From assembly GCA_049304095.1 (NCBI GenBank), contig JBAQNU010000029.1:98222-162221 (forward strand): DNA of 64,000 nucleotides. The letters run 5' to 3'. Below the pieces are notes generated by a model that did no database searches, was not told the origin of the DNA, and was given only the letters and a program-made list of their open reading frames with translations. Both the position numbers and the translations under genes were made by a program. Source of the DNA: Candidatus Moraniibacteriota bacterium (GTDB taxonomy: Bacteria > Patescibacteriota > Minisyncoccia > Moranbacterales > UBA2206). The number at the start of each line of letters is the position of its first letter. Position 1 is the first letter of the stretch. Positions 2,765-54,595 of the stretch are shown here, piece by piece.

Positions 2765-3541
2765 CTAATTCAAATGCGTAGGTTCTTGATCTGCCGTAAT
2801 TGCCTTCCACATAAATTCAAAAAGTTCCTTATGCAAGCGGATGATATTTTTGTTTTCGATTACCATTGCTATAACCGGCAAGGTGGTTTGGTGGATGAGG
2901 ATTTTGCTTGGTGTAATGGTAATGGAAGCCGAGAGCTGCATATCTTGTGGAAAAATTTTTATCTGCAAATTATATATCGCTTCGTTTTGTTTATATTTTC
3001 TGGCAATTTCCGAATCTTGGAGTAAAAGACGGTTATTGAGCTTTTTTTGTGCGCGTTTTTCCACAAAATTTTCAAAAAATCTTTGGTCTTCTGACATCCA
3101 CTTGGCGGAATCGCTGATAACCCAATAATCCTCTCCGAATTTCACTTCATCTAGGAGATCTAGATGGATATTTTTCACCGCTTCCACGCCTTCGTAGTAT
3201 TTAATTAGACTGCTTCCACCTTCTGCGCTATAGAGCGCCTTGAAATCAACTAATGATTCTTGAAGCTCTTTTTTCTTATTATCCATTATTCTTTCCAATT
3301 TTTCCGGATTTTCCGCAGAAAAAAGGGTTTTCCAGCCGATCTGCTCAACTTTCATGAGGCCTAATTGCTTTAATGATTCAACCGCCGAATAAACGGTGGT
3401 TCTTTTGACTTCTGAGGCCTTGGAAATGGCTAGAATAGTGGTTTTTCCCAAAGAAAGCGCGCTCAAATAAACTAGCGCTTCATTATCGCTAAGCCCTAAA
3501 TTAAGCAGTACTTTGTATAGTTTATTGTCCATATTTGGCAT
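2765..3541 (-). CDS. TrmB-like HTH transcriptional regulator (paralog 1 of 5)
   Basis: N-terminal wHTH pattern LGLSDNEALVYLSALSLG...ISKASEVKRTTVY shared with four other ORFs in the window. Divergent from the small-ORF module. Confidence 0.6.
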   Translation of the reverse strand: MPNMDNKLYKVLLNLGLSDNEALVYLSALSLGKTTILAISKASEVKRTTVYSAVESLKQLGLMKVEQIGWKTLFSAENPEKLERIMDNKKKELQESLVDFKALYSAEGGSSLIKYYEGVEAVKNIHLDLLDEVKFGEDYWVISDSAKWMSEDQRFFENFVEKRAQKKLNNRLLLQDSEIARKYKQNEAIYNLQIKIFPQDMQLSASITITPSKILIHQTTLPVIAMVIENKNIIRLHKELFEFMWKAITADQEPTHLN

Positions 3542-4503: not shown

Positions 4504-4669
4504 AACCACCAAAGCCGAATTTGTTAACACACAAATTCGGCTCCATTTTTGAAATCATTTCATTGACCACAAAAAACAAAGCGGAAAGCTTATCACAGCT
4601 CTCCGCTTTTTTTCTTTTTAATCTAAATCGTGGGACCAGCCCCGCCTCGGCGGGACGACCAAGAGATTA

Positions 4670-4768: not shown

Positions 4769-5557
4769 CTATCCTTTGTTCGTGATTATGTCTAGACTTG
4801 GTGTGGGATATTGTTTTAATTTGATTTCTGGCAGATTGTCCCAGGCCAATTCAAAGATCCATCTTAGAGTGTTATTGATTTCTGCGCTTTCTATGATTAC
4901 CGCCATCTGTTCTTTACTGGAGATGAGAGCGACTTTTTGATGACCATAGATATCAACTTCGACCGAGAATGGATAGCGGTCTTTTTTAATTAGCTTGCAA
5001 GACCGCAGATGCTGTTGATCCCGGGTGATGATACTCTCAGACAGATATTTTGTTTCTGGCAGAATCGCCCGGACGCGGATATTTTTTTTGACTCGTTTTT
5101 TAATATACCACTCAATCCAATCTTCACCCAGAATATTCCTCACATCTTCTGATCCGAAAGCGAGAATTTCTCCGGAATAGCGTAGCGCGTCATCATAGGC
5201 CTCCATCAAGCCTTCTTTCCCTTCATAAAATTTAATCTTTGGCTTCATCCCGCGGACGTTATAGATGGATTTTAGTTGTGGTAGGATTTCTGAAAACAAA
5301 GCCTCTTTCTTTTCCAGATCCTTTTTGATTTTTTCTGGATCTTCGCCGATAAATAGTCTTTTGGCGCCATTTAGCGTTTCTGCCACCAACCCGGCATTTT
5401 TGAGATCCAAGAGAATGTCATAGGCGGTTGTTCTTTTGATATTGGCCTTTTTGGAAATATCAATGACACTGGCTCCGCCCAATTCCAAGGCTGCGAGATA
5501 TACATCGGCTTTTCGACCAGTGAGCCCAAATTGTTCAAGAGTTTGTTTAGTGTCCAT
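4769..5557 (-). CDS. TrmB-like HTH transcriptional regulator (paralog 2)
   Basis: N-terminal LGGASVIDISKKANIKRTTAY wHTH. Paralogous to 2765..3541. Confidence 0.6.
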   Translation of the reverse strand: MDTKQTLEQFGLTGRKADVYLAALELGGASVIDISKKANIKRTTAYDILLDLKNAGLVAETLNGAKRLFIGEDPEKIKKDLEKKEALFSEILPQLKSIYNVRGMKPKIKFYEGKEGLMEAYDDALRYSGEILAFGSEDVRNILGEDWIEWYIKKRVKKNIRVRAILPETKYLSESIITRDQQHLRSCKLIKKDRYPFSVEVDIYGHQKVALISSKEQMAVIIESAEINNTLRWIFELAWDNLPEIKLKQYPTPSLDIITNKG

Positions 5558-6682: not shown

Positions 6683-7129
6683 ATGAGTGGAAGAGACAAA
6701 ATTACAGAACAGTTGGCCTCTAATGGTGTAAGTATGGATGAGATTCGGAGTAACTTTGAAGGTCTTATTAGGTGTTATCGCAACAATGAGTTTAGGAGCG
6801 ATTACTCCTTCGTGGAAATAAAAGTGGTAGAGAAAAAAGAATTTGGGTGGGTAGTTTTAATTGAAGATTACTCAAACCAAACATCATGCACTGTTGTAAG
6901 GTCTGAGCTGTTTGTCGTAAGCGAGGGAAAAATAATATCAAAAAGCAAACGAGTTTTTGTGGGGGTATGGAATAAGTGTCCAAAAGAGTGGACACTGGAA
7001 TCGATTTCAGAAACCGATGACGCTTTCATCGTTATCGGGAAGCCTTTTGGAAAGGAGGTGTTGAAAAAATCGGATAAGTTTTTTCCGCGTTGCCCACTTT
7101 CAGGCAAGTGGGAAGAGTTCTTTGTTTAA
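6683..7129 (+). CDS. hypothetical protein
   Basis: ORF. Start chosen at the ATG after the AAAGGAG SD. Confidence 0.4.
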   Translation: MSGRDKITEQLASNGVSMDEIRSNFEGLIRCYRNNEFRSDYSFVEIKVVEKKEFGWVVLIEDYSNQTSCTVVRSELFVVSEGKIISKSKRVFVGVWNKCPKEWTLESISETDDAFIVIGKPFGKEVLKKSDKFFPRCPLSGKWEEFFV

Positions 7130-7254
7130 CTACAAACCGACTTCGAGCCAAGTCGTAAAACATGGCTTTTTTTATTTGTAATAAAACGAAAAAACACCCC
7201 ACATAATATTGAGTGCATAAATAATTATGACTGCAAGTGAAGTGAATTTTTTTG

Positions 7255-7328
7255 TGGTCACTAGTGGACTCGAACCACTGGCCTTCACAATGTCAATGTG
7301 ACGCTCTAACCAACTGAGCTAAGCGACC
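7255..7328 (-). tRNA. tRNA-Val (GAC), no encoded CCA
   Basis: GGTCGCTTAGCTCAGTTGGTTAGAGCGTCACATTGACATTGTGAAGG...GGTTCGAGTCC. Confidence 0.8.
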
Positions 7329-7375
7329 AAACTTTTCAAATAAACGCTTTGCCTACCGACAGACAGGTAATCAAC

Positions 7376-7410
7376 TGCTTGCCTGCCGGAGCTTTGGCAT
7401 AGGCAGGAGC
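7376..7410. repeat. GC-rich hairpin element (CCTGCC...GGCAGG family) inserted in a partial tRNA D-arm copy
   Basis: TAGCTC-[hairpin]-CAGTTG flanks. Same family at 14241, 15096, 15402, 31696 and 44299. Confidence 0.55.
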
Positions 7411-7419
7411 TATACGCCC

Positions 7420-8415
7420 CTATTCTTCCGTTTCAATTGTTTTTATCGTTTCTGTTACTGGCAAAATTGCTGCTTCTTCCTCTAGAACTTCCTCTTCGGC
7501 TAATTTTTCTTTCACTTTCGGCTTAGCGATAACATGAAAAAATAGAACCCAGGCAACTTCGGAAAAAGCTAGAAAGAAAGAATAAAACAAAATCAGGGTC
7601 AAGATGAAAAGCAAAATGGCGCTGATTGCGGTAATGGCTATGCCAATTTTGTGAAGAATTAAATAGAAAAGAAGTCCAATGAGGCCAAAAATAATCAGGA
7701 AAGCGAGGAGGAGAGCGATAATGGCAAAGAAAGAGAGGATGCCTAGAGGGATAAAGAGCAGAGACATTATGATGCTTGCAAGAATATTTTTTTTGAAAAG
7801 GGCGTAGGCATTTTCCGCCGCAAGCCATGGCCGCAGATCCGCGAGTGTGGCATAGAGACAGGCGTAGGTCTGGATATATTTATAGATTACAAGAAGCGGA
7901 ATAATAATCAAAACGGCCAAGATTGCCAGAGGAATGGCAATGAAATAGGTTTTGCTGAGAAAAAGGATGATAACCGGAACAATGAGAATTAGAAGACAAA
8001 AAGCGAGAGCTAGGCAGGAGAACAGGGTGATTTTGAAATTGGGCCAAAAGTATTTTCGACCATCTTTCCAGCCTGTGGCAAATGACGTTGGCTCTTTTTT
8101 GAGCAGTCTCTGGGTGGATTTAATAATTGCACCTTTGCCAATGAGGGAAAGAAAAATGGCGATGATGAAAACGACAAAAGCCACTATTCCCAAAATAGCG
8201 ATTAATTTGGCATGAGTAGCAATGAATTCTTGTGGTTGAAAAACTTGTCCGAACTTTTGCCAATCGATTGGGCTTTTTCCGTCACTTTTTTGAAAGTAAT
8301 CAGGATTGGAGATGCCGGTTAGGAGCATAAAAAAACCAAACCACCACAAAAAGCGGTTTTTCCAGGTGATTTTTAGGGCGTCACGGAAAATTTTTAGGTA
8401 ATCGATGTTTGACAT
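7420..8415 (-). CDS. polytopic membrane protein, hypothetical
   Basis: Multiple hydrophobic helices. Acidic C-terminus. Confidence 0.5.
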   Translation of the reverse strand: MSNIDYLKIFRDALKITWKNRFLWWFGFFMLLTGISNPDYFQKSDGKSPIDWQKFGQVFQPQEFIATHAKLIAILGIVAFVVFIIAIFLSLIGKGAIIKSTQRLLKKEPTSFATGWKDGRKYFWPNFKITLFSCLALAFCLLILIVPVIILFLSKTYFIAIPLAILAVLIIIPLLVIYKYIQTYACLYATLADLRPWLAAENAYALFKKNILASIIMSLLFIPLGILSFFAIIALLLAFLIIFGLIGLLFYLILHKIGIAITAISAILLFILTLILFYSFFLAFSEVAWVLFFHVIAKPKVKEKLAEEEVLEEEAAILPVTETIKTIETEE

Positions 8416-14145: not shown

Positions 14146-14222
14146 TGGTGGACGATACTGGGTTCGAACCAGTGACCTTACGAATGTGAATCGTACGCTC
14201 TAACCAACTGAGCTAATCGTCC
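14146..14222 (-). tRNA. tRNA-Val (CAC), CCA encoded
   Basis: GGACGATTAGCTCAGTTGGTTAGAGCGTACGATTCACATTCGTA...CCA. Confidence 0.8.
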
Positions 14223-14240
14223 GAATAGTAGAGGATGAAA

Positions 14241-14276
14241 CTGCTTGCCTGCCGGAGCTTCAGCGCAGGCAGGAGC
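14241..14276. repeat. GC-rich hairpin element (CTGCTTGCCTGCCGGAGCTTCAGCGCAGGCAGG) inside a duplicated tRNA-Val 5-prime fragment
   Basis: Flanked by a second copy of AGCTAATCGTCC (the tRNA 5-prime end). Confidence 0.55.
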
Positions 14277-14292
14277 TAATCGTCCAACTCTG

Positions 14293-14365: not shown

Positions 14366-14497
14366 GACTTGCTAAAATATAAATAAAGAATATTGCTCAT
14401 CAATCATAACAGTTAATATGAGATAGTCAATTTAAAGCTCAGTTTGCGGTTATGGGCAAAAAATACTACACTACTAATAATTATCCTGGCTACTATT

Positions 14498-16276
14498 ATG
14501 GCAAATCTAACTGAAAAGATAGGAAATATCTGGAGGGAAATCAAAAACCAGCCAAAAGACATTTGGTTCTTCTGTTTGTTTTTATTGACTTTTCCTCTGA
14601 GTATAAGAAAAGTGATGATGCAATTTCCCATCAAAGGTGCTTTTAATGAATATGCCAGTGCATATATCTACTTGTCGGATTTGTTTTTTCTTCTGACAAT
14701 GCTAGTCGGGTTGTTTCTTATAATACGCAACAAAAAGCAAGATATGTCAAGTAGTAAGGGGAACTTTTTGACACTTATCCACAGGTTATTCTGTGACAAA
14801 GCTGTGGATAACTCTAATACGCCAGGAGTATCACTAAGAAAAATAACTTTAATTAAAGCCATAAATCCATATTTTCGTGCAATTTTTCTGGGCCTAATCT
14901 TTATAATGCTGTTTGATCATTACTTATGGGATATCTGGCAGGGGCAAGTTCTGTTTTGGGTGGTTTGCGGATTTTTAGTGGGCATTGAGTTTCTAAAATG
15001 TTCCACCCCGAAGAATTCCAAATTGTTCCACGTGGAACATTCTGGAATCACGTGGCAGACGTGGGACAATTTAGGATACAATGGAGTCGCAAAATGTTCC
15101 ATGCCTGCCTATCGGAGCCTCGGCGCAGGTAGGTGGAACATTTTCAGGAAAAGTATTTTCATAATCCCCCTTATTTTAGTTATTTGCTCATTTGTCTCAG
15201 TAAATTGGTCAGAAAATCAGCTAATTAGTCTATATCGATCATTTCGCTTGCTTGAGTTATATCTGTTGTTCATATATATTTCTTTGCGTTTTGTGCCTTA
15301 TTGTGTTGGATGTTTTGCAAAATGTTCCACCCTCCTACGTCAAGACTCCGGCGGGCAGGCGCGGAACAATTATGCAGCTGGAGATTCTGAAAATGCTCCG
15401 CGCCTGCCTGCCGAAGTTTTAGCGCAGGTAGGTGGAGCATTCGGCATTATTATGTTTACAGGAGCGATTCAATCTGTGGTTGGTGTTGTTCAGGTTATTA
15501 TACAACATTCAGTTGGATTATTTTGGCTAAGAGAAAGCATTGTTGCGCCAAACATTGCCGGCGTGGCAAAGATTATTATCAATCATCAAGCCTATATTAG
15601 AGCTTATGGCTTATTCCCGCACCCCAATATTCTGGGTGGATTTTTGTTTTTTTCGATTATAATCACATTGCTTTGCCAAAAAATGTTCCACGTGGAACAT
15701 TTCAAGGAGCAAGATAGTATGAATTGTTCCACGTGGAACATTTCCGGGGGGGATTTTTGGAAAATTGTTCCACGTGGAACAATTTGGAATTATTTAATTT
15801 GGCTTGCTTTGATTATTCAGATTACTGGAATTATTTTTTCTTTCTCTAAATCAGCTATCTTGGCGCTAATAGTTGCTGTTATATATATAATTGTTCCACG
15901 TGGAACATTTCAGGTGGTTAATTTGAAAAAATTGTTCCACGTGGAACAATTTAGGATGCTTCTAATCGCAGGACTTGTCATATTAGGCGGACTGTTTTTC
16001 TTTAGAGTTGAAGTTTATGACTTGTTCGCAAAATCTTTTCAGGAAAGAAAACTCTATATGTTCATCTCAGAGCAGATCATCGCCGATAGTCCAATAGTTG
16101 GTGTCGGGACGGGACAGTTTATTGTGAATGCAGAAAAGTTATTTCCTAATCTTGAAGTCTGGCAATACCAGCCGGTGCATAATGTGTTTCTTTTAATTTG
16201 GTCAGAATGGGGGATTGTCGGGTTGGTTTTGTTTATTTTGTTTTTGTGGAAATTGCTCCACTTTAAAAAATATTAA
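14498..16276 (+). CDS. O-antigen ligase/polymerase-like (Wzy_C family) polytopic membrane protein carrying multiple in-frame palindromic-repeat insertions
   Basis: C-terminal signature GVGTGQF...HNVFLLIWSEWGIVGL and SKSAILALIVAVI. At least 7 perfect 18-bp palindromes translated in all three frames (LFHVEH, CSTWN, VPRGT) without breaking the ORF. ATG at 14498 preferred over the TTG at 14444. Confidence 0.55.
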   Translation: MANLTEKIGNIWREIKNQPKDIWFFCLFLLTFPLSIRKVMMQFPIKGAFNEYASAYIYLSDLFFLLTMLVGLFLIIRNKKQDMSSSKGNFLTLIHRLFCDKAVDNSNTPGVSLRKITLIKAINPYFRAIFLGLIFIMLFDHYLWDIWQGQVLFWVVCGFLVGIEFLKCSTPKNSKLFHVEHSGITWQTWDNLGYNGVAKCSMPAYRSLGAGRWNIFRKSIFIIPLILVICSFVSVNWSENQLISLYRSFRLLELYLLFIYISLRFVPYCVGCFAKCSTLLRQDSGGQARNNYAAGDSENAPRLPAEVLAQVGGAFGIIMFTGAIQSVVGVVQVIIQHSVGLFWLRESIVAPNIAGVAKIIINHQAYIRAYGLFPHPNILGGFLFFSIIITLLCQKMFHVEHFKEQDSMNCSTWNISGGDFWKIVPRGTIWNYLIWLALIIQITGIIFSFSKSAILALIVAVIYIIVPRGTFQVVNLKKLFHVEQFRMLLIAGLVILGGLFFFRVEVYDLFAKSFQERKLYMFISEQIIADSPIVGVGTGQFIVNAEKLFPNLEVWQYQPVHNVFLLIWSEWGIVGLVLFILFLWKLLHFKKY

Positions 16277-16295
16277 ATTGTTCCACGTGGAACAA
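15023..16295. repeat. array of palindromic units TTGTTCCACGTGGAACAA (perfect copies near 15023, 15684, 15724, 15766, 15891, 15933, 16278; degenerate or nested copies near 14996, 15093, 15318, 15405)
   Basis: Read directly. Irregular spacing. Some copies split at their centre by a GC hairpin element. Confidence 0.85.
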
Positions 16296-16383
16296 TTTGA
16301 TTTAAGATCCTCTTATCCCGAGGGGCGAAGTGGATATTGCGAATAATTTGACAAATAGATTATTTTATTATGTAATATTAAAA

Positions 16384-17124: not shown

Positions 17125-17901
17125 TTGGCGACAAGTAATATTATGCTTGAAAAAGAACTGCAAAATGCTGGTTTAAGCGAGCGAGAATCTAAGGTATATT
17201 TGACTTGTCTTGAAATGGGGGAGACGAGCATCGCAAAATTGGCCAAAAAAGCCCAAATAAAGAGGACAACAGTCTATCTTTTAATTGGATCTCTGCAAGA
17301 AAAGGGCCTTATTGGCCTCATCAAGAAAGGCAATAAGACTTTGTATATTTCGGAGGATCCACGTAAAATTGCAGAAAAGATGGAGCAGAGGAAGTCAGCT
17401 ATTGAAAAGATTTTGCCAGAATTATTGTCGATGACGAATTTTACTAACATAAAACCGCGTATAAAGTATTTTGAAGAAAAGCGGGCGGTTGAAGATGTAT
17501 ATCGAGATACGCTGCTATATCCTGATCAAGAAATACTTTCTTGGTTTCCCGCCCTGCTTGTCCAGGATGATAAAGATTTTTTTAATGATTATTATATTAA
17601 AAAAAGACTAGAGAAAAAGATTTGGGTGAAGGCGATTGCGCCTGACACTGTGGATATGCGAGAATATTTCAATCGCGACAAAACAGAATTGCGTCAAACA
17701 AAACTAATTTCTCAAGATATCTTTAATATTGAAGTTGGAATTTTGCTTTATGGAAAAAGTAAAGTAGGAATTGTATCCTATGAAGAAGGCATGGGACTTA
17801 TCATTGAAAGCCCAAAAATTTATAAAAGCTTAAGAAATATTTTTGACCTGGCGTGGAATTCGTTGCCGGAAAATAAACAACAGCAATCTATTGTTGAATA
17901 A
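17125..17901 (+). CDS. TrmB-like HTH transcriptional regulator (paralog 3)
   Basis: N-terminal LSERESKVYLTCLEMGETSIAKLAKKAQIKRTTVY. Confidence 0.6.
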   Translation: MATSNIMLEKELQNAGLSERESKVYLTCLEMGETSIAKLAKKAQIKRTTVYLLIGSLQEKGLIGLIKKGNKTLYISEDPRKIAEKMEQRKSAIEKILPELLSMTNFTNIKPRIKYFEEKRAVEDVYRDTLLYPDQEILSWFPALLVQDDKDFFNDYYIKKRLEKKIWVKAIAPDTVDMREYFNRDKTELRQTKLISQDIFNIEVGILLYGKSKVGIVSYEEGMGLIIESPKIYKSLRNIFDLAWNSLPENKQQQSIVE

Positions 17902-17928: not shown

Positions 17929-17949
17929 GTGTCTAAGTTGTGGATAAGT

Positions 17950-21393: not shown

Positions 21394-21499
21394 AGTTTTT
21401 TGTTGAAAGTTGGTTAAATAATTTCGTCACAAACACGCAAAATCTAGACCAAGTCTAGTTTACTTATATATATTAGCATGAGAGAAATTGTCTGTCGAG

Positions 21500-21555
21500 T
21501 GGATAAAATAAAAAAAGCCATGTTTAGAGACTTGGCTTGAAGTCTTTTTTGTCTA
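21500..21555 (-). terminator. repeated terminator-containing element (AGACTT-CAAGCC-AAGTCT ... AGCCATGTTTAGAGACTTGGCT), copy 1
   Basis: Near-identical to 22598..22655. Confidence 0.45.
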
Positions 21556-22504: not shown

Positions 22505-22597
22505 ACCGCACCCCCTTCGTTGAATTTTGTAGGAACTTCAAAGCCAAGGCTTCGACTCAATATGGTAGCATTATTTGTTTGGATTGTCCAGCCAGTA

Positions 22598-22655
22598 AAA
22601 TAAAAAAAGCCATGTTTAGAGACTTGGCTTAAAGTCTTTTTGTTTACAATTCCTT
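22598..22655 (-). terminator. repeated terminator-containing element, copy 2
   Basis: Near-identical to 21500..21555. Immediately downstream of 22678..23094(-). Confidence 0.45.
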
Positions 22656-23656: not shown

Positions 23657-24436
23657 ATGGAACATTTGATTGAACCACTGAAAAACTTAGGACTAAGCGA
23701 AAAAGAAGTGCTGGTCTATCTGGCATTACTTCAACTTGGCTCAGCGACGCCCTATCAGGTTGCCAAAAAATCGGGGATTAAAAGGCCAACAGCCTATGTG
23801 ATTGCGGAAGAATTGGTAAAAAAAGGTTTGGTTGTGCATATTCCTGGCGAAGAAAAAAAGCGCTATATTGCCAAAAACCCGGATGCTTTTTTTGAAGAGC
23901 AAGAAGAAAAACTGGCAATGGCGAGAAAAATCTTGCCAGAACTGCGCTCATATCAGAAAAATGTGGCGGAAAAACCGAGCATATTGTATTTCGAAGGGCT
24001 TGAGGGATTGCATCAAGCCTATGAGTATCGGCAGAAAGAGCTGCATGGAAGGGAGATCGTGGGATTTTTTGCATCTAATGAGGACTCAACGCCTGAAGTG
24101 ACGCAGTATTTTGTGAAATGGAATGAATATCGAGAAAAACATAATACGCCGGTGCGGGGAATTACAGTCGATGCGCCGGAGCTTTTGCCTTATGCTAAAT
24201 TTTTTGGAGAAGGCGTGGGAGCTATGACACTTAAATTTTTGCCTCGCAATATGTATGGTTCTAAAATTTCCATCGAATCTTGTGATAATCAATTTGTGCG
24301 CATATTCCTTTTTGAAAGCGTGGAAACGCTAATTATTGAGTCGCCAAAATTTGCAGTGGCCGTAAAAGAAATCTTTGAATTAGTCTGGAAATCGACGGAG
24401 GGGAAATATGAAAAGCCGGCGACGTGGGTTAGGTAG
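23657..24436 (+). CDS. TrmB-like HTH transcriptional regulator (paralog 4)
   Basis: LGLSEKEVLVYLALLQLGSATPYQVAKKSGIKRPTAY. Confidence 0.6.
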   Translation: MEHLIEPLKNLGLSEKEVLVYLALLQLGSATPYQVAKKSGIKRPTAYVIAEELVKKGLVVHIPGEEKKRYIAKNPDAFFEEQEEKLAMARKILPELRSYQKNVAEKPSILYFEGLEGLHQAYEYRQKELHGREIVGFFASNEDSTPEVTQYFVKWNEYREKHNTPVRGITVDAPELLPYAKFFGEGVGAMTLKFLPRNMYGSKISIESCDNQFVRIFLFESVETLIIESPKFAVAVKEIFELVWKSTEGKYEKPATWVR

Positions 24437-31637: not shown

Positions 31638-31695
31638 CAATTAAGTTAAGTCACGCGTCCCGCCGAGGCGGGATTCTCGCAAGGGATTGGAGGTT

Positions 31696-31756
31696 CCCTG
31701 CCTACGCTGAAGCTTCTACCTTCGTTGAAACTTCGGTAGACAAGTCGGCAGGCAAG
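31696..31756. repeat. GC-rich hairpin element inserted in the T-loop of a duplicated 3-prime half of tRNA-Leu(TAG)
   Basis: TTCTCGCAAGGGATTGGAGGTTC-[element]-GAGTCCTCTTCTGGGCACAA duplicates the tRNA 3-prime half. Preceded by the GTCCCGCCGAGGCGGG hairpin. Confidence 0.6.
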
Positions 31757-31782
31757 GAGTCCTCTTCTGGGCACAATATGTT

Positions 31783-33311: not shown

Positions 33312-33405
33312 GCGCCTTCGTGGTGGAATTGGTATACACACATGCAAGAGGCGCTGGGTCGCAAGCCCGCCGCGGCGGGGGGTTCGAGTCGCGTGTCTTG
33401 AGGGA
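33312..33405 (+). pseudogene. tRNA-like remnant (tRNA-Leu-type D-arm and T-loop) disrupted by a CCCGCCGCGGCGGG hairpin
   Basis: TGGTGGAATTGGTATACAC and GGTTCGAGTC present, but no foldable anticodon or T stems. Confidence 0.3.
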
Positions 33406-33623: not shown

Positions 33624-33627
33624 CAGA

Positions 33628-33950
33628 GCCGAGTTAGCTCAGTGGTAGAGCAGAGGACTGATTTTCGGTCCGCTCTGAAGTAATTCAGAGATGAGAATTG
33701 GATGAATTCGAGGAAGCCTAAAACTAATTTTATTAGAAATGGTAATCTCGAGCTAAGCTTCAAAGGGCGTAAGGTTTTGAAGAAAGTGTAGAGACTAGCA
33801 AGTGAGTCCCAACAATAATCTTGCATTAGCGTCCGATATCCTATTTTGCTAAGTAGCAAAAGGATAATGAAATAGTCCGATCCTTGGGGAAACTCAAGAA
33901 AAATGAGTAGGAAAATCCTTGTGTCCCCGGTTCAATCCCGGGACTCGGCA
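33628..33950 (+). tRNA. tRNA-Phe (GAA) interrupted by a ~251-nt intron between positions 33 and 34
   Basis: Exons GCCGAGTTAGCTCAGTGGTAGAGCAGAGGACT / GAAAATCCTTGTGTCCCCGGTTCAATCCCGGGACTCGGCA closely match a canonical bacterial tRNA-Phe. Confidence 0.7.
33660..33910 (+). other. putative group I self-splicing intron in the tRNA-Phe anticodon loop
   Basis: 5-prime exon ends in U paired with a G of the internal guide GGUCC (P1 GGACU/GGUCC). Intron ends in G. R-like AGAGACUAGC and S-like AAUAGUCCG elements. No ORF. Confidence 0.55.
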
Positions 33951-33954
33951 CGGA

Positions 33955-34010: not shown

Positions 34011-34694
34011 ATGAGAAAAGATAAAGTCAAAGCGCTAGCGCTTAGAAAAAAAGGTTTTAGCTATAATGAAATTAGCAAAAAACTAGAAGTTCCTAAAAGC
34101 ACGCTAAGTTATTGGTTGGCAGATGTAGTAATTTCACAAAAAGCGAAAAACAGAATTGCAAGTAGGGTTTTTGCAGGAAGTGTGAAGGGGCTGATTGAGA
34201 GAAATAAAAATCAAACGGCACTAGCGAAAGAAAGAGCAAAAGCTATTCGAGAAATTGCAAAGAAAGAAGTTAGAAATTTAATGAAAAACAAATTATTTTT
34301 GGTGGGCATTTCCCTGTATTGGGCGGAGGGATATAAAAAGGGTGCTTATGGAAGTAAATGGAAAGCAGTGGATTTTGCCAATTCCGATCCTGAGTTAGTG
34401 AAAATAATGATGAATTTTTTCAGAAAAGTTTGCAGAGTAGAAAGTGAAAAGATAAAAGTTCAGCTAATTGCTCATAAAAATATTGATATGGACGAAGCGG
34501 TGAGCTATTGGTCTGGGCTTATGAAATTATCGAAAAGTCAGTTCATGAAAACAAGTTGTGCGGTGAGTAGCGCGAGCAAAGGCAAGAGAAACAAAAACAG
34601 TTTGACGCACGGAACAGTTCATATTAGGATAAATGATGTAAGGCTATTTTTTCGGATTATTGGCTGGATCGATGGATTGAAGTTGTATATATAG
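34011..34694 (+). CDS. HTH-containing protein with a single LAGLIDADG-like motif (LFLVGISLYWAEGY); candidate free-standing homing endonuclease
   Basis: N-terminal HTH (GFSYNEISKKLEVPKSTLSYWL). Motif resembles the LAGLIDADG core. Position next to the intron-containing tRNA. Confidence 0.35.
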   Translation: MRKDKVKALALRKKGFSYNEISKKLEVPKSTLSYWLADVVISQKAKNRIASRVFAGSVKGLIERNKNQTALAKERAKAIREIAKKEVRNLMKNKLFLVGISLYWAEGYKKGAYGSKWKAVDFANSDPELVKIMMNFFRKVCRVESEKIKVQLIAHKNIDMDEAVSYWSGLMKLSKSQFMKTSCAVSSASKGKRNKNSLTHGTVHIRINDVRLFFRIIGWIDGLKLYI

Positions 34695-34742
34695 CTTATA
34701 GTTATTGTTTTTGGCGGGCTTGCCCGCCGAAGCGTAGCATAG

Positions 34743-34814
34743 GCGGGTATCGTATAGTGGCTAATATACGTCCTTGCCAAGGACGAGCGACGGGTTCGAT
34801 TCCCGTTACCCGCT
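34743..34814 (+). tRNA. tRNA-Gly (GCC), discriminator U
   Basis: GCGGGTATCGTATAGTGGCTAATATACGTCCTTGCCAAGGACG...GGTTCGATTCC. D-stem has a G10-U25 wobble. Confidence 0.7.
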
Positions 34815-34953
34815 CAAGATGGCAGAAGCGACTCTTTTTTGGGTCGTTTTTGCTTTAGATAAGTCAAAAGTATCCAGTTCGAGAAAAGTCGAGGACGGTC
34901 CTCGATTTTTTATACTGCTTTACGCTAGATTTATGCTATAATTGACCAAATAT

Positions 34954-35572: not shown

Positions 35573-37072
35573 ATGGCAAAAAATGTATTAAATTTAAATC
35601 AAAAAAGTGCAAAAAAATTCTTTCTTAGTCAAGAATGTTATTTGAACATCGAATTGCCGCCATATTTTAAGTTTGATGAGTTGCTTGCAGAAGTTGACAA
35701 CGAATCAAATTCGTTGATATTAAGCGAAAAAGATTTAAAGAAAGCGAAGAAAAATGAAACAATAAATCATATTTTATATGGCAACAAGGATGGTAAATAT
35801 GCTTGGAGAAAATATGAAATTATAAACCCACTGATGTATGTATCGCTGGTAAACGTTATTACAGAAAAGGATAATTGGGATTTTTTAAAAAATAGATTTA
35901 ATGAATTTCAAAAAGATAGCAATATAGAATGCGAAAGCATCCCAGTTTTAGCTGGCACTAAATCAAAACAAAGAGCATCTCAGATTTTACGCTGGGTCAA
36001 TAGAATTGAAAAAAGGTCACTTGCACTAGCGTTGGAATATAAGTATTTATATCAAACAGATATTTCTGATTGTTATGGTTCTATATATTCTCATTCATTG
36101 CCTTGGGCCATACATACCAAAGAAACATCGAAAAATAATAGGGGCTTCAATGGTTTGTTTGGAAATAAGATTGACCAGCACATACAAGCTATGTCTTATG
36201 GAGAAACAAATGGCATACCGCAAGGGAGCACTTTAATGGACTTTATAGCAGAAATTGTTCTTGGTTATGCGGATATGCAATTGTCAGATAAATTAAAAAA
36301 AGAATTAAGGGAAAAGAAGTTTCATATTTTGAGATATAGAGATGATTATAGAATTTTTGTAAACGATGTTGCTGACGGGGACATTATTTTAAAGTGCTTG
36401 AGTGAAGTTTTATTAAACTTAGGATTCAGATTGAATGCCAATAAAACATCCTTTAGTGATGATGTTATTGGCGGGTCAATAAAAAAAGATAAAATTGACG
36501 AATTACGAATAGAGGAAACACCGAAAAAGTTATCCAAAAAGGGACTACTTAGACAATTGCTTATAATTCAACAACTGGGTAAGCAATTTCCTAATTCTGG
36601 AACAGTAGTTAGGCGACTCTCTCACATTTTGGATAATGTTAAACCAAAGGATTTTTATTTGCAAGAGAAAATAATAGTAAGTGTGCTTGCTGATATAGCC
36701 TATAACAACCCAAACTCCTTTCCTCTTGTGGCTGGTTTAGTTTCAAGCTGTATCGCCAAGGTATCAAAAAAAGAGAAAGGGGAGCTGTTAATTTCAATAC
36801 AAAAAAAGGTTTGCTTGCTTCCAAATGCTGGCCTTTTGGAAATATGGACGCAAAGGATAGCTCTTGGAATAAAACTTAAATTGGAATTAAATGAAAAACT
36901 TTGTTGTTGTGTTTACGACTCAAATTTTAAGATATTCGAAACGAATTGGATAGAATATCCCAGAATTAAGGCTATTATAGACGACGGTTCTTATGTTGAT
37001 ATGGATAAAATAGAGAAACTTAAGCCGATAATAAGCAATAAAGAAGTCCAAATATTTACTTATGGCGGTTAA
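35573..37072 (+). CDS. reverse transcriptase, defence-associated/Abi-UG type (RT domain plus alpha-helical C-terminal extension)
   Basis: RT motif A DISDCYGSIY, motif B-prime GIPQGSTLMDFIAEIVL, motif C RYRDDYRIF and a downstream NANKTSF. No retron VTG. No DGR SQ motif. Confidence 0.75.
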   Translation: MAKNVLNLNQKSAKKFFLSQECYLNIELPPYFKFDELLAEVDNESNSLILSEKDLKKAKKNETINHILYGNKDGKYAWRKYEIINPLMYVSLVNVITEKDNWDFLKNRFNEFQKDSNIECESIPVLAGTKSKQRASQILRWVNRIEKRSLALALEYKYLYQTDISDCYGSIYSHSLPWAIHTKETSKNNRGFNGLFGNKIDQHIQAMSYGETNGIPQGSTLMDFIAEIVLGYADMQLSDKLKKELREKKFHILRYRDDYRIFVNDVADGDIILKCLSEVLLNLGFRLNANKTSFSDDVIGGSIKKDKIDELRIEETPKKLSKKGLLRQLLIIQQLGKQFPNSGTVVRRLSHILDNVKPKDFYLQEKIIVSVLADIAYNNPNSFPLVAGLVSSCIAKVSKKEKGELLISIQKKVCLLPNAGLLEIWTQRIALGIKLKLELNEKLCCCVYDSNFKIFETNWIEYPRIKAIIDDGSYVDMDKIEKLKPIISNKEVQIFTYGG

Positions 37073-42511: not shown

Positions 42512-42650
42512 AGCAATGAGAAATTGATGTATAATGGGTCTAGGATAAGCGAAATTTGGTTTTGGTGTCACTTTGTGGTTGACGGGCGTTAGGTGACTAT
42601 TCGGCGATGTAGTGCATAATAGGCATAATTTTTTATTAAAAAATATTTTT

Positions 42651-43397
42651 ATGGAACAAGAACTATTAGCTTTGGGGCTGACTTGGAATGAAGTTAAAGC
42701 ATATAAGAGTCTTATGAAACTGGGCGAGACGCAAGTTGGTGGAATTATCACTGATCTCAAGATTCATCGCCAGATTGCCTATAACGCCCTTGACGCACTG
42801 GAAAAGCGCGGGATGGTGACGAAAACGAGCAAGAACAAAGTTCAACATTATAAAATAGTCGATCCAGAAGTGATTGTGGAAAATGTCAAAAAGCAGGAAG
42901 TTTTGGCAGAAAGGTTGGCGCGGACGATCAAGCACGAGATGAAAAAAAGTCGGCATGAGCATGAAATTAGTCTCTATAATGGCCGAGAAGCGGCTCGGCG
43001 ATTTTTTATCCAGTCATTTAAGAAATTCCCAGTTAGCGCTACTACCTACATCATGGGGGTGCCCGTTAATGACTATACTGAAGCAATGGGGGCGGATTTT
43101 CTGGCTGGCCCCTATAATAAGATTCGCAATCAGAGAGATATCCGTTCTCGATTACTGGTAAGTGAGAGAATGCGTGAGGAAAACAAGGACTATGAAAAGC
43201 TAGTTAATCCGGTTTTGCGCGAGACACGCTATTTGCCCTATCAAGTACTCAATCCAATCTCCACTCTCATTTGGGAGGATCACATTTCTTTTATTTCTAT
43301 AAAGCCAGAATTCTTTATTATTGATATTTTGAGCCAAGCTTTTCGGGACTCGTATAAGGAGCATTTTGATATGCTCTGGAAGATGGCGAAAAAATAG
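42651..43397 (+). CDS. TrmB-like HTH transcriptional regulator (paralog 5, most divergent)
   Basis: LGLTWNEVKAYKSLMKLGETQVGGI..IHRQIAY. Same overall length and layout. Confidence 0.45.
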   Translation: MEQELLALGLTWNEVKAYKSLMKLGETQVGGIITDLKIHRQIAYNALDALEKRGMVTKTSKNKVQHYKIVDPEVIVENVKKQEVLAERLARTIKHEMKKSRHEHEISLYNGREAARRFFIQSFKKFPVSATTYIMGVPVNDYTEAMGADFLAGPYNKIRNQRDIRSRLLVSERMREENKDYEKLVNPVLRETRYLPYQVLNPISTLIWEDHISFISIKPEFFIIDILSQAFRDSYKEHFDMLWKMAKK

Positions 43398-43443: not shown

Positions 43444-43514
43444 GGTCCGGTGGCCGAGCGGTTAGGCAAAGGTCTGCAAAACCTTTTACAACAGTTCAAC
43501 TCTGTTCCGGACCT
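43444..43514 (+). tRNA. tRNA-Cys (GCA), discriminator U
   Basis: GGTCCGGTGGCCGAGCGGTTAGGCAAAGGTCTGCAAAACCTT...GTTCAACTC. Confidence 0.8.
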
Positions 43515-43581
43515 CAAATTTTTCTAAAAGCTATTGTTATGGTATACTTATGGAGTGATACTAACTAATAAGTATACCACT

Positions 43582-44052
43582 ATGAGAAAAAGAAGTTGGA
43601 CAGAGGACGAATTAAAAAAAGCAGTTAAATTATCCACAAGCGTTAGGCAGGTTTTAAAAAGATTAAAGCTGAAAGAAGCGGGTGGAAACTATTCTCAAGT
43701 AAAAAAGTTTTTAGAACTATATAAAATAAACACAAAGCATTTCACGGGAAAGGGCTGGAATAAAGGAATGCAAGGAATAGGAAAGCCCCGGAGAAAGTTA
43801 GAGGAAATTCTAAAAAAGAACACTGACTTTCAAAGCTTTAAATTAAAGAAAAGATTATTTTTTGCAAAACTAAAGCCAAAACATTGTGAGGAGTGTGGGT
43901 GGCATGAGATGTCTGATGATGGTAGATTGCCACTAGAACTTGATCACATCAATGGCGACAGTAAAGACAATCGATTGGAAAACTTGCGAGTGCTTTGTCC
44001 TAATTGCCATAGTCTAAAACCAACACACAGAGGAAGAAATCGAAAAAAATAA
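43582..44052 (+). CDS. HNH endonuclease located between two tRNA genes
   Basis: ELDHINGDSKDNRLENLRVLCPNCH HNH motif. Confidence 0.7.
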   Translation: MRKRSWTEDELKKAVKLSTSVRQVLKRLKLKEAGGNYSQVKKFLELYKINTKHFTGKGWNKGMQGIGKPRRKLEEILKKNTDFQSFKLKKRLFFAKLKPKHCEECGWHEMSDDGRLPLELDHINGDSKDNRLENLRVLCPNCHSLKPTHRGRNRKK

Positions 44053-44056: not shown

Positions 44057-44139
44057 GGGCGAGTGGTGAAATGGTATACACTCGACACTTAAAATGTCGC
44101 GGAGCTTGCTCCATGAGGGTTCGAGTCCCTCCTCGCCCA
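44057..44139 (+). tRNA. tRNA-Leu (TAA)
   Basis: GGGCGAGTGGTGAAATGGTATACACTCGACACTTAAAATGTCG...GGTTCGAGTCC. Continuous, no intron. Confidence 0.8.
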
Positions 44140-44177
44140 CAGTGAGTTTAGTATTGAAAAATCGCCGATGAGGCGAT

Positions 44178-44789
44178 TTATTTTTCTTCTTTTTCAATTT
44201 TTGCAATAATCTTCGGAATCCGTTTGAAATCTTTGATCAGTGTTTCGCGCATTCCGCCATTATAGAGCGCCGCGGCGGGGTGGTAGAGAGTATAGAAAAC
44301 CTGCCTACCGGCAGGCAGGCCTGGCTTGCCCATGCCTTCAATTTCTCGGCGCATGGCTTTGCCGTGGACTTCGGAAATCTTGAATCCGGGTAAAAATCTT
44401 TCCATGGAATGGCGGCCGAGAGTGACGATTAATTTTGGCTGGATGATTTCAATTTGCGCAAGAAGCCATGGCCAGCAAGTGGAGATTTCTTCGGGCAGTG
44501 GGTCGCGATTTTCCGGTGGGCGACATTTACAGACATTGGCGATGTAGACGTCTTCGCGTTTGAGCTTGATCGCGTCCAGCATTTCGTTCAAGAATTTTCC
44601 AGCTGATCCAATAAAAGGCATGCCAGTTTCGTCCTCTTTTTTTCCAGGCGCTTCGCCAATAAACATAATTTTCGCGCTCTCTGATCCAGCGCCAGGGACG
44701 ACCTGAATGCAACCTTTGCGCAAAGCACATTTGGTGCAGGCGAACATTTCCGCGTTTAGTTTTTCGAGTTGGTCTTTTTTGGATTCCAT
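44178..44789 (-). CDS. uracil-DNA glycosylase, family 4 (Fe-S)
   Basis: CTKCALRKGC...IMFIGEAPGKKEDETGMPFIGSAGKFL. Confidence 0.8.
   Translation of the reverse strand: MESKKDQLEKLNAEMFACTKCALRKGCIQVVPGAGSESAKIMFIGEAPGKKEDETGMPFIGSAGKFLNEMLDAIKLKREDVYIANVCKCRPPENRDPLPEEISTCWPWLLAQIEIIQPKLIVTLGRHSMERFLPGFKISEVHGKAMRREIEGMGKPGLPAGRQVFYTLYHPAAALYNGGMRETLIKDFKRIPKIIAKIEKEEK
44299..44318. repeat. GC hairpin element copy (CCTGCCTACCGGCAGGCAGG) lying in-frame inside the UDG gene
   Basis: Encodes the GKPGLPAGRQV segment of the ORF. Confidence 0.4.
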
Positions 44790-53317: not shown

Positions 53318-54085
53318 ATGCAAAATAAAAAATATTTTTTTGGTTTGGCGGTTTCGATGGTTGCTTTTTTGGGAGTTTTTGGATTGAGGAGCGAGGCTGG
53401 AGCGGCAAATGTTGGATGTTATGATGCTATTGCTGGATCTTGCAATGAATTAGATAAAAGCGGGGGTGCTACATGTAGCTCTCCTGCTACCTGGTGCGCG
53501 AGTGATGCCAGGTGTAACGGTACTGTCTGTGCTTCAACCACCATCCCAACTTCTGGTACTCAGACTCCGACCGAATTTACCAATCCACTCGGATTTAGTT
53601 CAATCGACGGTGTGCTGACGAGTCTTTTGGGATCGCTTAAGGGTTTTGTGGTAATTTTGGCGATTATTTTTATTGTAATCGGCGGAATTATGTATATGCT
53701 GTCCGCCGGAGATCCAAAGATGGTCGAGCAAGCAAAAAAAAGCTGGCTCTATGCGGTGATTGGTCTGGCTATTGTGGTTGCAGCGCCGACATTTCTCAAA
53801 CAAGTGCAAGAAATTTTGGGTGGAACTTTGACCGGTGGAGGAATCGAAACTGCGCGTAGCGTGAAAGATATTGCTAATGGAATTTTGAAATTTCTCTTGT
53901 CGATTACGGGAATCATTGCTATAATCAGTTTAGTGATTGCTGGTGGAATGTATATGACAGCTTATGGCGAAGAAAAACAAATCACCACAGCAAAAAGTAT
54001 TGGAAAGTGGGCGATTGTGGGCATCGTTGTGGCGCTCGGTTCGCTCACCATCATCCAGCAAGTTTCCAAATTGATTACTGGTTAG
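53318..54085 (+). CDS. TrbC/VirB2-like (T4SS-pilin-type) membrane protein with Cys-rich N-terminal domain and two pilin-like modules
   Basis: Signal peptide. Cys-rich ectodomain. Duplicated motif LxxIxGxIAIIxxVIAGxMYMxAxGEEKxxxxAK. Confidence 0.5.
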   Translation: MQNKKYFFGLAVSMVAFLGVFGLRSEAGAANVGCYDAIAGSCNELDKSGGATCSSPATWCASDARCNGTVCASTTIPTSGTQTPTEFTNPLGFSSIDGVLTSLLGSLKGFVVILAIIFIVIGGIMYMLSAGDPKMVEQAKKSWLYAVIGLAIVVAAPTFLKQVQEILGGTLTGGGIETARSVKDIANGILKFLLSITGIIAIISLVIAGGMYMTAYGEEKQITTAKSIGKWAIVGIVVALGSLTIIQQVSKLITG

Positions 54086-54131
54086 AGTTAGGGATAAAAA
54101 TAAAATTATAAAATAGAATGGAGGTGTTGAA

Positions 54132-54491
54132 ATGAAAAACAAAATTAAATTAGCAGGTTATTCAGTGCTTTCTGTTGCGATGACTTTTCCAGCTGTTGCT
54201 TTTGGCGCTTTTGATCCGAACGTTGGTGGTGCTACTGGTTTGCCAAAAAGCTCTCTGATGGATATTATCAGCAACATCATGCAATGGCTTCTCACAGCAG
54301 TGGGTATTGCTGGCGTGATTGGATTTGTGATTGCAGGCCTTCTCTACCTCACCGCAGCGGGAGATGAAAAGAAAATCGCAACAGCCAAACAAGCCATGCT
54401 CGCTTCTATTATCGGTGTGATCGTGGCGATTGCTGGAGTTGTTGCTCTCAACGTGGCGAAAAGTTTGCTCGGAGGAACGCAAAATTTCTAA
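54132..54491 (+). CDS. TrbC/VirB2-like pilin paralog
   Basis: Signal peptide plus ISNIMQWLLTAVGIAGVIGFVIAGLLYLTAAGDEKKIATAKQAM. Confidence 0.5.
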   Translation: MKNKIKLAGYSVLSVAMTFPAVAFGAFDPNVGGATGLPKSSLMDIISNIMQWLLTAVGIAGVIGFVIAGLLYLTAAGDEKKIATAKQAMLASIIGVIVAIAGVVALNVAKSLLGGTQNF

Positions 54492-54515
54492 CAAATATTT
54501 TTTTGAAATTTCAAA

Positions 54516-54548
54516 AACCACTCCAAGATCGGGGTGGTTTTGTTTTTG
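54516..54548 (+). terminator. rho-independent terminator
   Basis: CCACTCC...GGGGTGG followed by a T-run. Confidence 0.5.
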
Positions 54549-54595
54549 ATTTTTTTTGTGCTATAATTTTTGTATAATAAATTAAACTTAAAAAA

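Follow-up and report, generated by a model that had tools for sequence, protein, structure and literature searches.

A 30-nt GC-rich hairpin element inserted at the dyads of probable parS sites in a Candidatus Moraniibacteriota genome

Results

Palindromes within a Wzy_C-family gene

The stretch of DNA analysed here (64,000 nucleotides, positions 98,222 to 162,221 of contig JBAQNU010000029.1 of a Candidatus Moraniibacteriota bacterium, hereafter the window) carries an open reading frame (ORF) encoding a Wzy_C/O-antigen-ligase-family protein, in which a cluster of palindromes is located. Three of these palindromes are split at the dyad by a GC-rich hairpin of 30 nt, which is the element under study. 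The 610-aa product of the ORF matched, at 100% identity, an NCBI protein that bears the annotation Candidatus Moraniibacteriota O-antigen ligase, and the organism is therefore a bacterium of the candidate phyla radiation (CPR)/Patescibacteria. The frame is uninterrupted throughout 14444-16276, with the palindrome cluster and the three element copies all in frame. The features of this region are as follows:

14444..16276, strand +, Wzy_C/O-antigen-ligase-family ORF, 610 aa (Pfam Wzy_C, E=1.2e-14)
14995..16299, no strand assigned, predicted parS cluster composed of perfect 16-mers TGTTCCACGTGGAACA, split copies and nested parS-in-parS arrangements
15024-15039, 15684-15699, 15725-15740, 15766-15781, 15892-15907, 15933-15948 and 16279-16294, perfect TGTTCCACGTGGAACA
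15104..15133, strand -, element copy C (CCTACCTGCGCCGAGGCTCCGATAGGCAGG), splitting the predicted parS 15093-15145 (nhmmer E=4e-5)
15330..15359, strand +, element copy D (CCCTCCTACGTCAAGACTCCGGCGGGCAGG), splitting the predicted parS 15320-15371
15403..15432, strand -, element copy E (CCTACCTGCGCTAAAACTTCGGCAGGCAGG), splitting the predicted parS 15392-15443

The palindromic 14-mer GTTCCACGTGGAAC was present in seven perfect copies relative to 0.10 expected, all of them within 15025-16293, and in three additional copies interrupted by the GC-rich insert (C, D and E). All papers retrieved from the full-text literature with this 14-mer dealt with ParABS chromosome segregation. In Pseudomonas putida and P. 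aeruginosa, the 16-mer TGTTCCACGTGGAACA has been published as parS, and a single base separates it from the Bacillus subtilis and Myxococcus xanthus parS (PMC7022226). All seven perfect sites have the 16-bp palindrome, TGTTNCACGTGAAACA or TGTTCCACGTGGAACA, by which parS is defined. The palindromes, which went unrecognised as canonical parS in an earlier reading of the window made by a model from the letters (the sequence-only reading), are thus by their sequence probably canonical ParB-binding centromere sites. Pfam scans covered 46 window ORFs, with NCBIfam and PADLOC applied to selected ORFs, and no ParB was detected among the 46.

The parS sequence can be read in three frames as CSTWN, VPRGT or FHVE(H/Q), and the homologous Wzy proteins of Moranbacteria are full of these peptides. 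The Wzy orthologues in contigs L148, L149, L150 and L152 (50-77% aa identity, ORFs of 575-726 aa) contained 7-9 perfect parS in frame, and the density amounted to 7-10 sites in 1.3 kb in the window and four related contigs. At this range of identity, an in-frame parS cluster within the Wzy_C membrane-protein ORF is conserved across Moranbacteria (L144-L146, L148-L152). On this comparison, the palindromes appear to constitute a cluster of centromere sites that is conserved and located within a coding gene.

Some further properties of the region were recorded. The parS units are gained or lost in steps of about 41-42 nt, and in 14995-15075 parS-bearing palindromes are nested in the dyads of other parS, at two levels in the window and at three in L144. 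The gyrA gene adjoins the parS-bearing ORF region. The Wzy ORF itself contains two perfect DnaA boxes (TTATCCACA), inverted relative to each other (14775-14783, strand +, and 14803-14811, strand -), which are kept in L144-L146, and a third one (17939-17947, strand -) is located beside gyrA. The Wzy ORF may overlap the replication-origin region.

Insertion of the element at the dyad

The sequence-only reading had described three palindromes split at their dyad by a GC-rich hairpin of about 30 bp, and all three were confirmed at the positions given above, together with orthologous empty sites. The latter were identified by aligning the window gene with the orthologous DNA of three contigs from related metagenomes (L144, L145 and L146); contig L001 represents the same strain as the window and hence was uninformative in this respect. 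Site C was uninterrupted, as TGTTCCAC|GTGGAACA, in all three contigs, with exactly 30 additional bases in the window. At site D, the window and L144 carried the insert and L146 did not; at site E, it was carried by the window, L144 and L149 and lacking in L145 and L146. The insertion point corresponded to the dyad, CAC^GTG; a position 1 nt to the left is equally possible because the element begins with C and C comes next after it. The gain at parS sites was always 30 nt, equal to 10 codons, without target-site duplication.

Scanning of metagenomes for the left half of parS followed by the element revealed four more contigs with one to four split parS each, all of which read TGTTCCA|30-mer|CGTGGAACA. 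The Wzy ORFs of the window and of seven related loci contained 15 element copies, of which 14 were placed at a parS dyad, the fifteenth being flanked by the left half of parS only. Several subfamilies occupied parS dyads (CCTACC.., CCCTCC.., CCAACC.. and a 60-nt composite described below), and several independent insertion events must therefore have taken place. The CCCTCC subfamily, to which copy D belongs, was also found at parS dyads in L148, L150 and L152. In copy C the A4:T23 pair is compensatory, and the parS arms flanking copy E show a compensatory double change (GCTCC/GGAGC).

Both the abundance and the folding of the inserts were evaluated. The motif CCTGCCTGCC (with up to one mismatch) occurred nine times in the window relative to 2.15 expected, a number reached in none of 100 shuffles, and a stem-pair pattern gave 22 matches on both strands of the window relative to 0.73 expected. 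Folded as single-stranded DNA (ssDNA), the composites at sites C (-13.7 kcal/mol, z -4.2) and E (-14.9 kcal/mol, z -3.6) formed continuous hairpins; the hairpin of composite D is decayed (z of about 0 to -1). The GC-rich hairpin is a discrete inserted element, recurrent at one phosphodiester bond of parS far beyond what chance or selection would give.

Anatomy and size variants of the element

From the window copies, a degenerate 26-nt pattern was constructed, with which one genome per species (596 Gb) was scanned; about one chance match was expected. The scan yielded at least 120 loci. A profile was built from 121 copies in the 120 loci listed, and base pairs were counted on the 84 distinct sequences among them. 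Four positions left free by the pattern were still conserved (C in 97%, C in 98%, Y in 95% and G in 76% of the 121 copies), and the flanks carried about 0 bits of information, the exceptions being C at position +31 (71%) and an underrepresentation of G at position 0. The conserved positions 1-30 with random flanks therefore delimit a discrete 30-nt element with the consensus CCYGCCTRCGCYRAGGCTTCGGCRGGCARG. About 20 of its 30 positions were conserved in at least 90% of the 84 distinct copies, which come from many phyla, 14 of these positions being fixed by the pattern. The earlier proposal that the hairpin is a discrete insert was thus borne out both by the filled and empty orthologous sites and by the sharp boundaries and random flanks of the 121 copies.

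The element consists of a 26-nt imperfect palindrome and a 4-nt CARG tail, so that the opposite strand has 5' CYTG at the foot of the hairpin. The structure ((((((.(.(((..))).).)))))).... gave 94% paired cells in the 84 sequences. Five pairs showed compensatory changes, amounting to 90 cells, a value that none of 500 shuffles attained and that collapsed in controls with slid partners. The pair 3:24 was C-G in 50 and U-A in 28 sequences, and the pair 12:15 was C-G in 41 and U-A in 34. Since the covarying pair 12:15 closes a loop of 2 nt, folding as DNA is favoured over folding as RNA. T7.C20 and C9.T18 are invariant mismatches, as would be expected of a folded strand recognised by a protein. 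A 9-bp stem register based on the motif of the sequence-only reading (CCTGCCTGC/GCAGGCAGG) was also considered and was discarded, as it showed zero covariation.

The family includes four size classes:

14 nt, stem-only form CCCGCC-NN-GGCGGG, at 4641, 31659 and 33366
20/21 nt, short form, in a uracil-DNA glycosylase (UDG) gene at 44300-44319; also in L034 and L083
30 nt, standard form, copies A-E
60 nt, composite form, 31697-31756

In the composite form, a diverged copy lies within another one, between positions 18 and 19 of the latter, at a conserved mismatch. The same 60-nt composite occupies a parS dyad in L144 and a related one is found in L148; the recurrence at a parS dyad indicates that the composite travels as a unit.

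Copies associated with tRNA sequences and the UDG gene

Among 12 loci of the family in the window, seven were associated with tRNA sequences. The copies outside the parS cluster are the following:

7378-7407 within 7347..7420, strand -, element copy A, in a 5' tRNA-like fragment GGGGCGTATAGCT-[element]-CAGTTGATTA
14244-14273 within 14239..14285, strand -, element copy B, inside a 17-nt duplicate of the tRNA-Val(cac) 5' end
31697-31756 within 31674..31775, strand +, 60-nt composite in a duplicate of the 3' part of tRNA-Leu(tag), in the T loop GGTTC^GAGTCC; outer element 31697-31714 and 31745-31756, inner diverged element 31715-31744
34719..34747, strand -, degenerate copy, the last 5 nt of which (GCGGG) are the first 5 nt of tRNA-Gly 34743-34815
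4641..4654, no strand assigned, 14-nt stem-only form, 16 nt past the tRNA-Met 3' end
31659-31672, 14-nt stem-only form in the spacer of the tRNA-Leu duplication
33366-33379, 14-nt stem-only form in the variable arm of a tRNA-Leu-like pseudogene
44300..44320, no strand assigned, 20-nt short form (CCTGCCTGCCGGTAGGCAGG, coding strand) in the family-4 UDG gene 44178-44789 (strand -, Pfam UDG)

Copies A and B had been assigned by the sequence-only reading to the D-loop of partial tRNA-Val copies. Both indeed lie in short 5' fragments of tRNA, but where the D stem meets the D loop (GCT^C / GCTC^A), and the first fragment (GGGGCGTATAGCT) does not duplicate the tRNA-Val next to it. Copy A may be followed by a 21-nt short form (7347-7367), and this whole stretch is located upstream of tRNA-Val(gac) (7254-7328). 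Copy B has the layout GGACGATTAGCT-[element]-CAGTT and is placed 16 nt upstream of the genuine tRNA-Val(cac) (14146-14222), an arrangement kept in L144. The insert in the duplicated 3' half of tRNA-Leu was correctly placed in the T loop, but it is 60 nt long and represents an element within an element. Contexts beyond parS thus comprise the T loop, the edge of the D stem and loop and the mismatch bubble of another copy. The overlap with the tRNA-Gly 5' end is repeated in L038 and L065, and five of the 121 copies overlapped the end of a tRNA gene by 2-6 nt relative to about 0.1 expected. The degenerate tRNA-Leu-like pseudogene (33318-33400, strand +) lies upstream of tRNA-Leu(gag), and its variable-arm region carries the 14-nt GC stem CCCGCCGCGGCGGG.

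The in-frame copy in the UDG gene, also part of the earlier description, proved to be a genuine insertion of 21 nt (7 aa), but one of the 20-nt short form, and the empty site, GATATGGGTCGTCAA|GTTTTT, is neither a palindrome nor a hairpin. The insertion was present in the window and in P0123, P0134, P0137 and P0141 and absent from P0122, P0124, P0125, P0126 and P0129; at the DNA level, the site was empty in L153 and L154 and filled in L155. It was shared by the window and some relatives at 75-85% identity and missing from the closest ones, at 85-92% identity.

Distribution and genomic contexts of the family

The 30-mer was found across at least 18 phyla. The hosts included many CPR lineages and Bacteroidota, represented by the isolates Niastella soli and Flavihumibacter petaseus and by closed Saprospiraceae chromosomes. 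Other hosts belonged to Verrucomicrobiota, Planctomycetota, Acidobacteriota, Ignavibacteria, Omnitrophota, Spirochaetes, Alpha-, Gamma- and Deltaproteobacteria, Chloroflexi, Actinobacteria, Armatimonadota, Cloacimonadota, Calditrichaeota, Fibrobacteres, Endomicrobia and TM6. One bin among the loci listed was labelled as an archaeon. Closed or isolate genomes with the element include CP185379.1, OZ252053.1, Niastella soli MAH-29 and Flavihumibacter petaseus NBRC 106054. The element was also carried by 22 viral contigs. A plasmid collection of 7.3 Gb gave no true match, only partial chance matches in GC-rich taxa. The sharp ends, random flanks and predominance of metagenome-assembled genomes among the hosts led us to consider a sequencing or assembly artefact, such as an adapter-like oligonucleotide; this was rejected on the grounds of sequence divergence between samples at orthologous insertions, covariation of the stems and the presence of the element in isolate as well as closed genomes.

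In loci with less than 50% GC, 24% of copies were inside long ORFs in comparison with 55% of random positions, and the element is mostly, not exclusively, intergenic. Directly abutting inverted repeats of at least 5 bp accompanied 5% of copies relative to 1% in controls. In Bacteroidota, tandem arrays were observed in which elements alternate with spacer units of 7-19 nt (L034 5189-5480, L005 at about 3086-3192, and L115); in the L034 array, the spacer alternating with the forms of 30 and 20 nt is the 8-mer cataacct. In four Verrucomicrobiia loci (L031, L077, L113 and L119), apparently paralogous or orthologous sites, the element is located directly 5' of another widespread GC hairpin (CCCTCTCCC...GGGAGAGGG). 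Different families of miniature hairpins appear to cluster together.

No description of the element was found in the searchable full-text literature when it was queried by the DNA sequence or by its six peptide readings, and papers on CPR combined with palindrome, parS or REP yielded nothing specific to it. Rfam gave nothing over the elements even at E values up to 10, the window reaching the gathering score only for tRNAs and one group I intron. The tables of repetitive extragenic palindromic (REP) sequences in the supplement of PMC6006769 contained no matching hairpin. Anabaena REPs sharing TGCCYGCC were set aside, as their arms are in the opposite order.

Discussion

Proposed movement as a folded single strand

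The explanation to which we give about an even chance of being right is that the hairpin is a non-autonomous miniature mobile element of 30 nt, moving as folded ssDNA by means of a structure-specific enzyme provided in trans. The folded strand would be cut and rejoined by this putative enzyme, for which an HUH/RAYT-like nuclease (RAYT, REP-associated tyrosine transposase) would be the best guess, and would enter DNA that is transiently single-stranded. The preference for parS and tRNA genes could be accounted for by the unpaired loop nucleotides which such palindromic sequences would supply amid paired DNA. The candidate entry points would be the 4-nt apex of a parS hairpin, extruded or formed on the lagging strand, the loops of tRNA genes and the mismatch bubble of the element itself; slipped heptamer repeats might perhaps serve as well. 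With a length of 30 nt and most of its reading frames open, the element survives inside genes.

A broader and rather doubtful proposition is that the family represents undescribed pan-bacterial selfish DNA, one of the smallest mobile units, which lacks a transposase of its own, uses universal enzymes processing ssDNA and hairpins and enters the structures of parS and tRNA. If true, such use of universal enzymes would explain the persistence of the same sequence in about 18 phyla, including the minimal genomes of CPR bacteria.

Several results weigh against movement by a dedicated enzyme acting on a folded strand. No HUH/Y1 transposase or other candidate enzyme was present among the 46 window ORFs scanned with Pfam, and no gene family recurred within 2.5 kb of more than 120 copies. 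A jackhmmer search of 1.13 Mb (ORFs of the window and the loci) with IS200 and IS608 TnpA queries gave no match, which is a weak negative. ORFs between paired copies either had no Pfam match or coded for a histidine kinase, and a viral contig with six copies (L133/L141) contained no transposase recognisable by eye. Enrichment of insertion sites in predicted hairpin loops was not supported outside the Moranbacteria lineage, as the junctions of reconstructed empty sites in a sample of many phyla fell in such a loop in 14.5% of cases relative to 10-11% in two controls. Insertion at the apices of hairpins or palindromes, put forward in the sequence-only reading, thus held for the parS and tRNA sites of this lineage and did not extend to the family; the lack of apex enrichment which that reading had named as counting against itself was found in part, the enrichment being weak across many phyla and the UDG site not being a hairpin. 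Direct repeats of at least 5 nt, which the ssDNA model does not predict, flanked about 12% of copies relative to 1% in controls. They peaked at 7 nt, were often within tandem arrays of heptamers and mostly represent such pre-existing arrays. The tetranucleotide at the hairpin foot is CYTG instead of GT[AG]G, the sequence is common to different phyla whereas REPs are normally species-specific, and no conserved target tetranucleotide is present in the flanks beyond the preferences at positions +31 and 0. Finally, contig L150 carries two nearly identical copies (6274 and 6681, 407 nt apart), from which part of the spread within the parS cluster could have occurred by local duplication or gene conversion.

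Possible spread by host replication and repair

The main rival dispenses with a dedicated transposase and ascribes the spread to host replication and repair, through template switching at stalled forks, hairpin-primed synthesis and gene conversion over short homology; we hold it to be rather improbable. According to this explanation, parS sites constitute near-identical 22-bp repeats, the 11-nt half-sites of which act as homology arms copying an insert to other parS, and every copy would therefore come to lie at the dyad automatically. The failure to find an enzyme candidate in the sequence searched, the L150 pair, and the nesting of parS units and their change in steps of 41-42 nt all agree with such a process. 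The same is true of the partial tRNA duplication around copies B and F, of the direct repeats and heptamer arrays at 12% of copies and the tandem arrays of L034, L005 and L115, which look as if produced by slippage, and of the compensatory double change in the parS arms of copy E, as from the correction of a quasi-palindrome. However, at least four subfamilies, the 60-nt composite included, occupy the dyads, and several insertions must therefore have come from donors other than parS, without homology in the flanks. Identical 30-mers with sharp ends and random flanks in about 18 phyla also speak against it, as do the two invariant stem mismatches, which hairpin-templated copying would erase. 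Host processes thus account for the local copies and duplications, but not for the multiple subfamilies at dyads or the invariant mismatches.

Less probable alternatives: tyrosine recombination, an RNA route and immobile copies

The window contains an ORF (1820-2761) encoding a XerC/D-like tyrosine recombinase that scored 236 bits, above the cut-off of NCBIfam NF040815 (recomb_XerA_Arch), a family described as 'site-specific tyrosine recombinase/integron integrase'. A recombinase of the Xer or integron-integrase type could be imagined to join the folded hairpin to palindromic targets resembling a core site, in the manner of IntI acting on folded attC or XerCD on the folded strand of CTX phage, with the tRNA duplications as att-like scars. 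We consider this still less probable. In shape, both parS, with 7-bp arms around a centre, and the T arm of tRNA correspond to a recombinase core site; division of the 26-nt palindrome into 10 + 6 + 10 gives the size of such a site, and the invariant mismatches resemble the extrahelical bases found in attC. Integrases classically target T loops and tRNA ends. Nevertheless, neither a duplicated core nor an overlap sequence flanks the parS insertions, normal synapsis of two sites requires a circle larger than 30 nt, and no integrase is recurrent beside the copies. Xer recombinases are near-universal, so the gene in the window weighs little.

A route through RNA, in which the hairpin is freed from tRNA precursors by RNase P or RNase Z and then joined into RNA loops or reverse-transcribed and reinserted, has very little probability in our judgement. 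Copies abut or overlap the 5' and 3' ends of tRNA, so that tRNA processing would excise them precisely; G.U is common at pair 8:19 (28 of 84 sequences), and a reverse transcriptase gene is present in the window (35573-37072, strand +). The product of this gene is an AbiP2-type defence enzyme (PADLOC E=1.5e-177), on which ground it was rejected as the mobiliser. Moreover, the 2-nt loop closed by pair 12:15 is impossible for an RNA hairpin, both orientations occur within one gene, and neither poly-A tails nor other signatures of retro-elements were seen.

The notion that the copies are GC-rich hairpins without mobility, either convergent or unrelated to one another, for instance terminators or stabilisers of RNA, which the sequence-only reading had named as the outcome that would undo its own, draws on their mostly intergenic position elsewhere (24% in long ORFs relative to 55%) and is hardly credible, being contradicted by the precise presence or absence of 30 or 21 nt at orthologous sites, the lack of a T run, the in-frame position within ORFs and the conservation of about 20 of 30 positions in a sequence without an Rfam match.

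Relationship to known repeats and transposons

The sequence-only reading had suggested mobilisation like that of REP/RAYT or IS200. The anatomy of the element is indeed REP-like, but neither a RAYT nor an IS200 TnpA was found in the searches described above, and a conserved flanking target tetranucleotide is lacking. REP sequences are defined by a tetranucleotide at the 5' foot of the hairpin (PMC6006769). The element shares with REPs and REPINs a GC-rich imperfect palindrome within the 20-40 nt of their hairpins, a foot tetranucleotide, a high copy number and a mostly intergenic position with in-frame genic copies (PMC3733652, PMC6006769), and conserved stem irregularities occur in both. It differs in the tetranucleotide, which is CYTG (CARG on the other strand) and not GT[AG]G or CGTC, and in being common to about 18 phyla and not specific to a species or genus. 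No RAYT was detected in the 46 window ORFs, in the 1.13 Mb searched with the TnpA queries or between paired copies. Furthermore, single 30-nt units are mobile and not REP doublets, and the preference for parS dyads and tRNA is strong.

With the IS200/IS605 family, the element has in common a folded, imperfect and mismatched hairpin, the absence of target duplication and presumed single-stranded targets. IS200/IS605 members have two distinct end hairpins, TnpA and a conserved 5' target tetranucleotide, none of which was seen with the element; the target tetra- or pentanucleotide at the left end that marks miniature elements derived from this family is likewise absent, the flanks being at about 0 bits. 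Miniature inverted-repeat transposable elements have terminal inverted repeats and a target duplication of fixed length, and no such duplication was present at the three parS sites with empty orthologues.

Small dispersed repeats (SDR) of heterocystous cyanobacteria, an account of which is attributed to Elhai et al. 2008, are reportedly 21-27 nt long, nested and located within heptamer repeats and conserved sequences. Both SDR and the element are very small mobile repeats; their sequences differ, and SDR are specific to cyanobacteria. To our knowledge, neither the mechanism mobilising SDR nor any link of theirs to parS has been described. The mobile GC clusters of yeast and fungal mitochondria are short GC-rich palindromes of AT-rich genomes which, like the element, insert in frame in genes and also in one another, but they have an organelle as host, an unrelated sequence and target duplications of AT dinucleotides.

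Rickettsia palindromic elements (RPE) and in-frame REPs are, according to work cited in PMC3733652, selfish palindromic DNA located in frame in protein genes and tolerated in protein loops, in which they resemble the element. RPE differ in being about 100-150 bp long and restricted to one lineage, and they are not known to occur at parS or inside tRNA. Insertion sequences of the IS110/IS1111 type similarly use the centre of palindromic repeats (REP, attC) as a target, according to Tobes and Pareja 2006 as cited in PMC3116915, but they are autonomous units of 1.2-1.5 kb with a DEDD transposase, whereas the invader described here is a 30-nt hairpin.

The closest known kind of element is REP/RAYT, from which the element is set apart by its tetranucleotide, the lack of species specificity and, in the searches made to date, the lack of a RAYT gene. 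The most fitting classification is that of a REP-like miniature hairpin with unusual targets (probable centromere sites and tRNA sequences) and an unusual breadth.

Other features of the window

The AbiP2-type reverse transcriptase gene is located in a stretch of low GC (0.32-0.33, at about 35-38 kb) just downstream of tRNA-Gly, and this stretch looks like a small defence island. An ORF coding for a helix-turn-helix (HTH) protein was found at 34011-34694. An ORF for an HNH endonuclease, similar to homing endonucleases (43534-44052, strand +), lies between tRNA-Cys (43444-43515) and tRNA-Leu(taa) (44057-44140), and an HNH ORF is similarly placed in L154. The anticodon loop of tRNA-Phe(GAA) (33627-33951, strand +), which was missed by ARAGORN, is interrupted by a group I intron (Rfam RF00028, 75.4 bits, 33650-33899). 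Five paralogues of about 260 aa with an N-terminal TrmB-type HTH are encoded at 2765-3541, 4769-5557, 17125-17901, 23657-24436 and 42612-43397, an unusual density in 64 kb for a small genome. Another family of repeats, with units of about 57 nt that share 89% identity and contain the hairpin AAAAAAAGCCATGTTTAGAGACTTGGCTT, was observed at 21493-21549, 22585-22641 and about 7100-7140, and it may be a terminator-like repeat. Finally, 53318-56405 (strand +) contains tandem paralogous genes with domains similar to type IV secretion system pilin and TrbC and with internal repeats (families D1, D10 and D14).

Significance of the family

If the family is as it appears, one 30-nt sequence has colonised bacteria from CPR to Bacteroidota, Planctomycetota and Acidobacteriota. 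Such spread across phyla contradicts the rule of species specificity for REP-type repeats and raises the question of conserved machinery that moves them. The in-frame inserts of 10 or 7 aa (PACAEASAGR, LPAEASAQA, GLPAGRQ), together with the parS readings (CSTWN, VPRGT, FHVEH), would explain many odd low-complexity inserts in CPR proteins. The cultured hosts Niastella soli and Flavihumibacter petaseus make experiments feasible, and filled and empty parS in metagenomes constitute a natural assay of target sites. The repeated, base-precise insertion into parS indicates that what are probably centromere sites can be eroded by selfish DNA, and this erosion may explain why these organisms keep at least 10 copies of parS.

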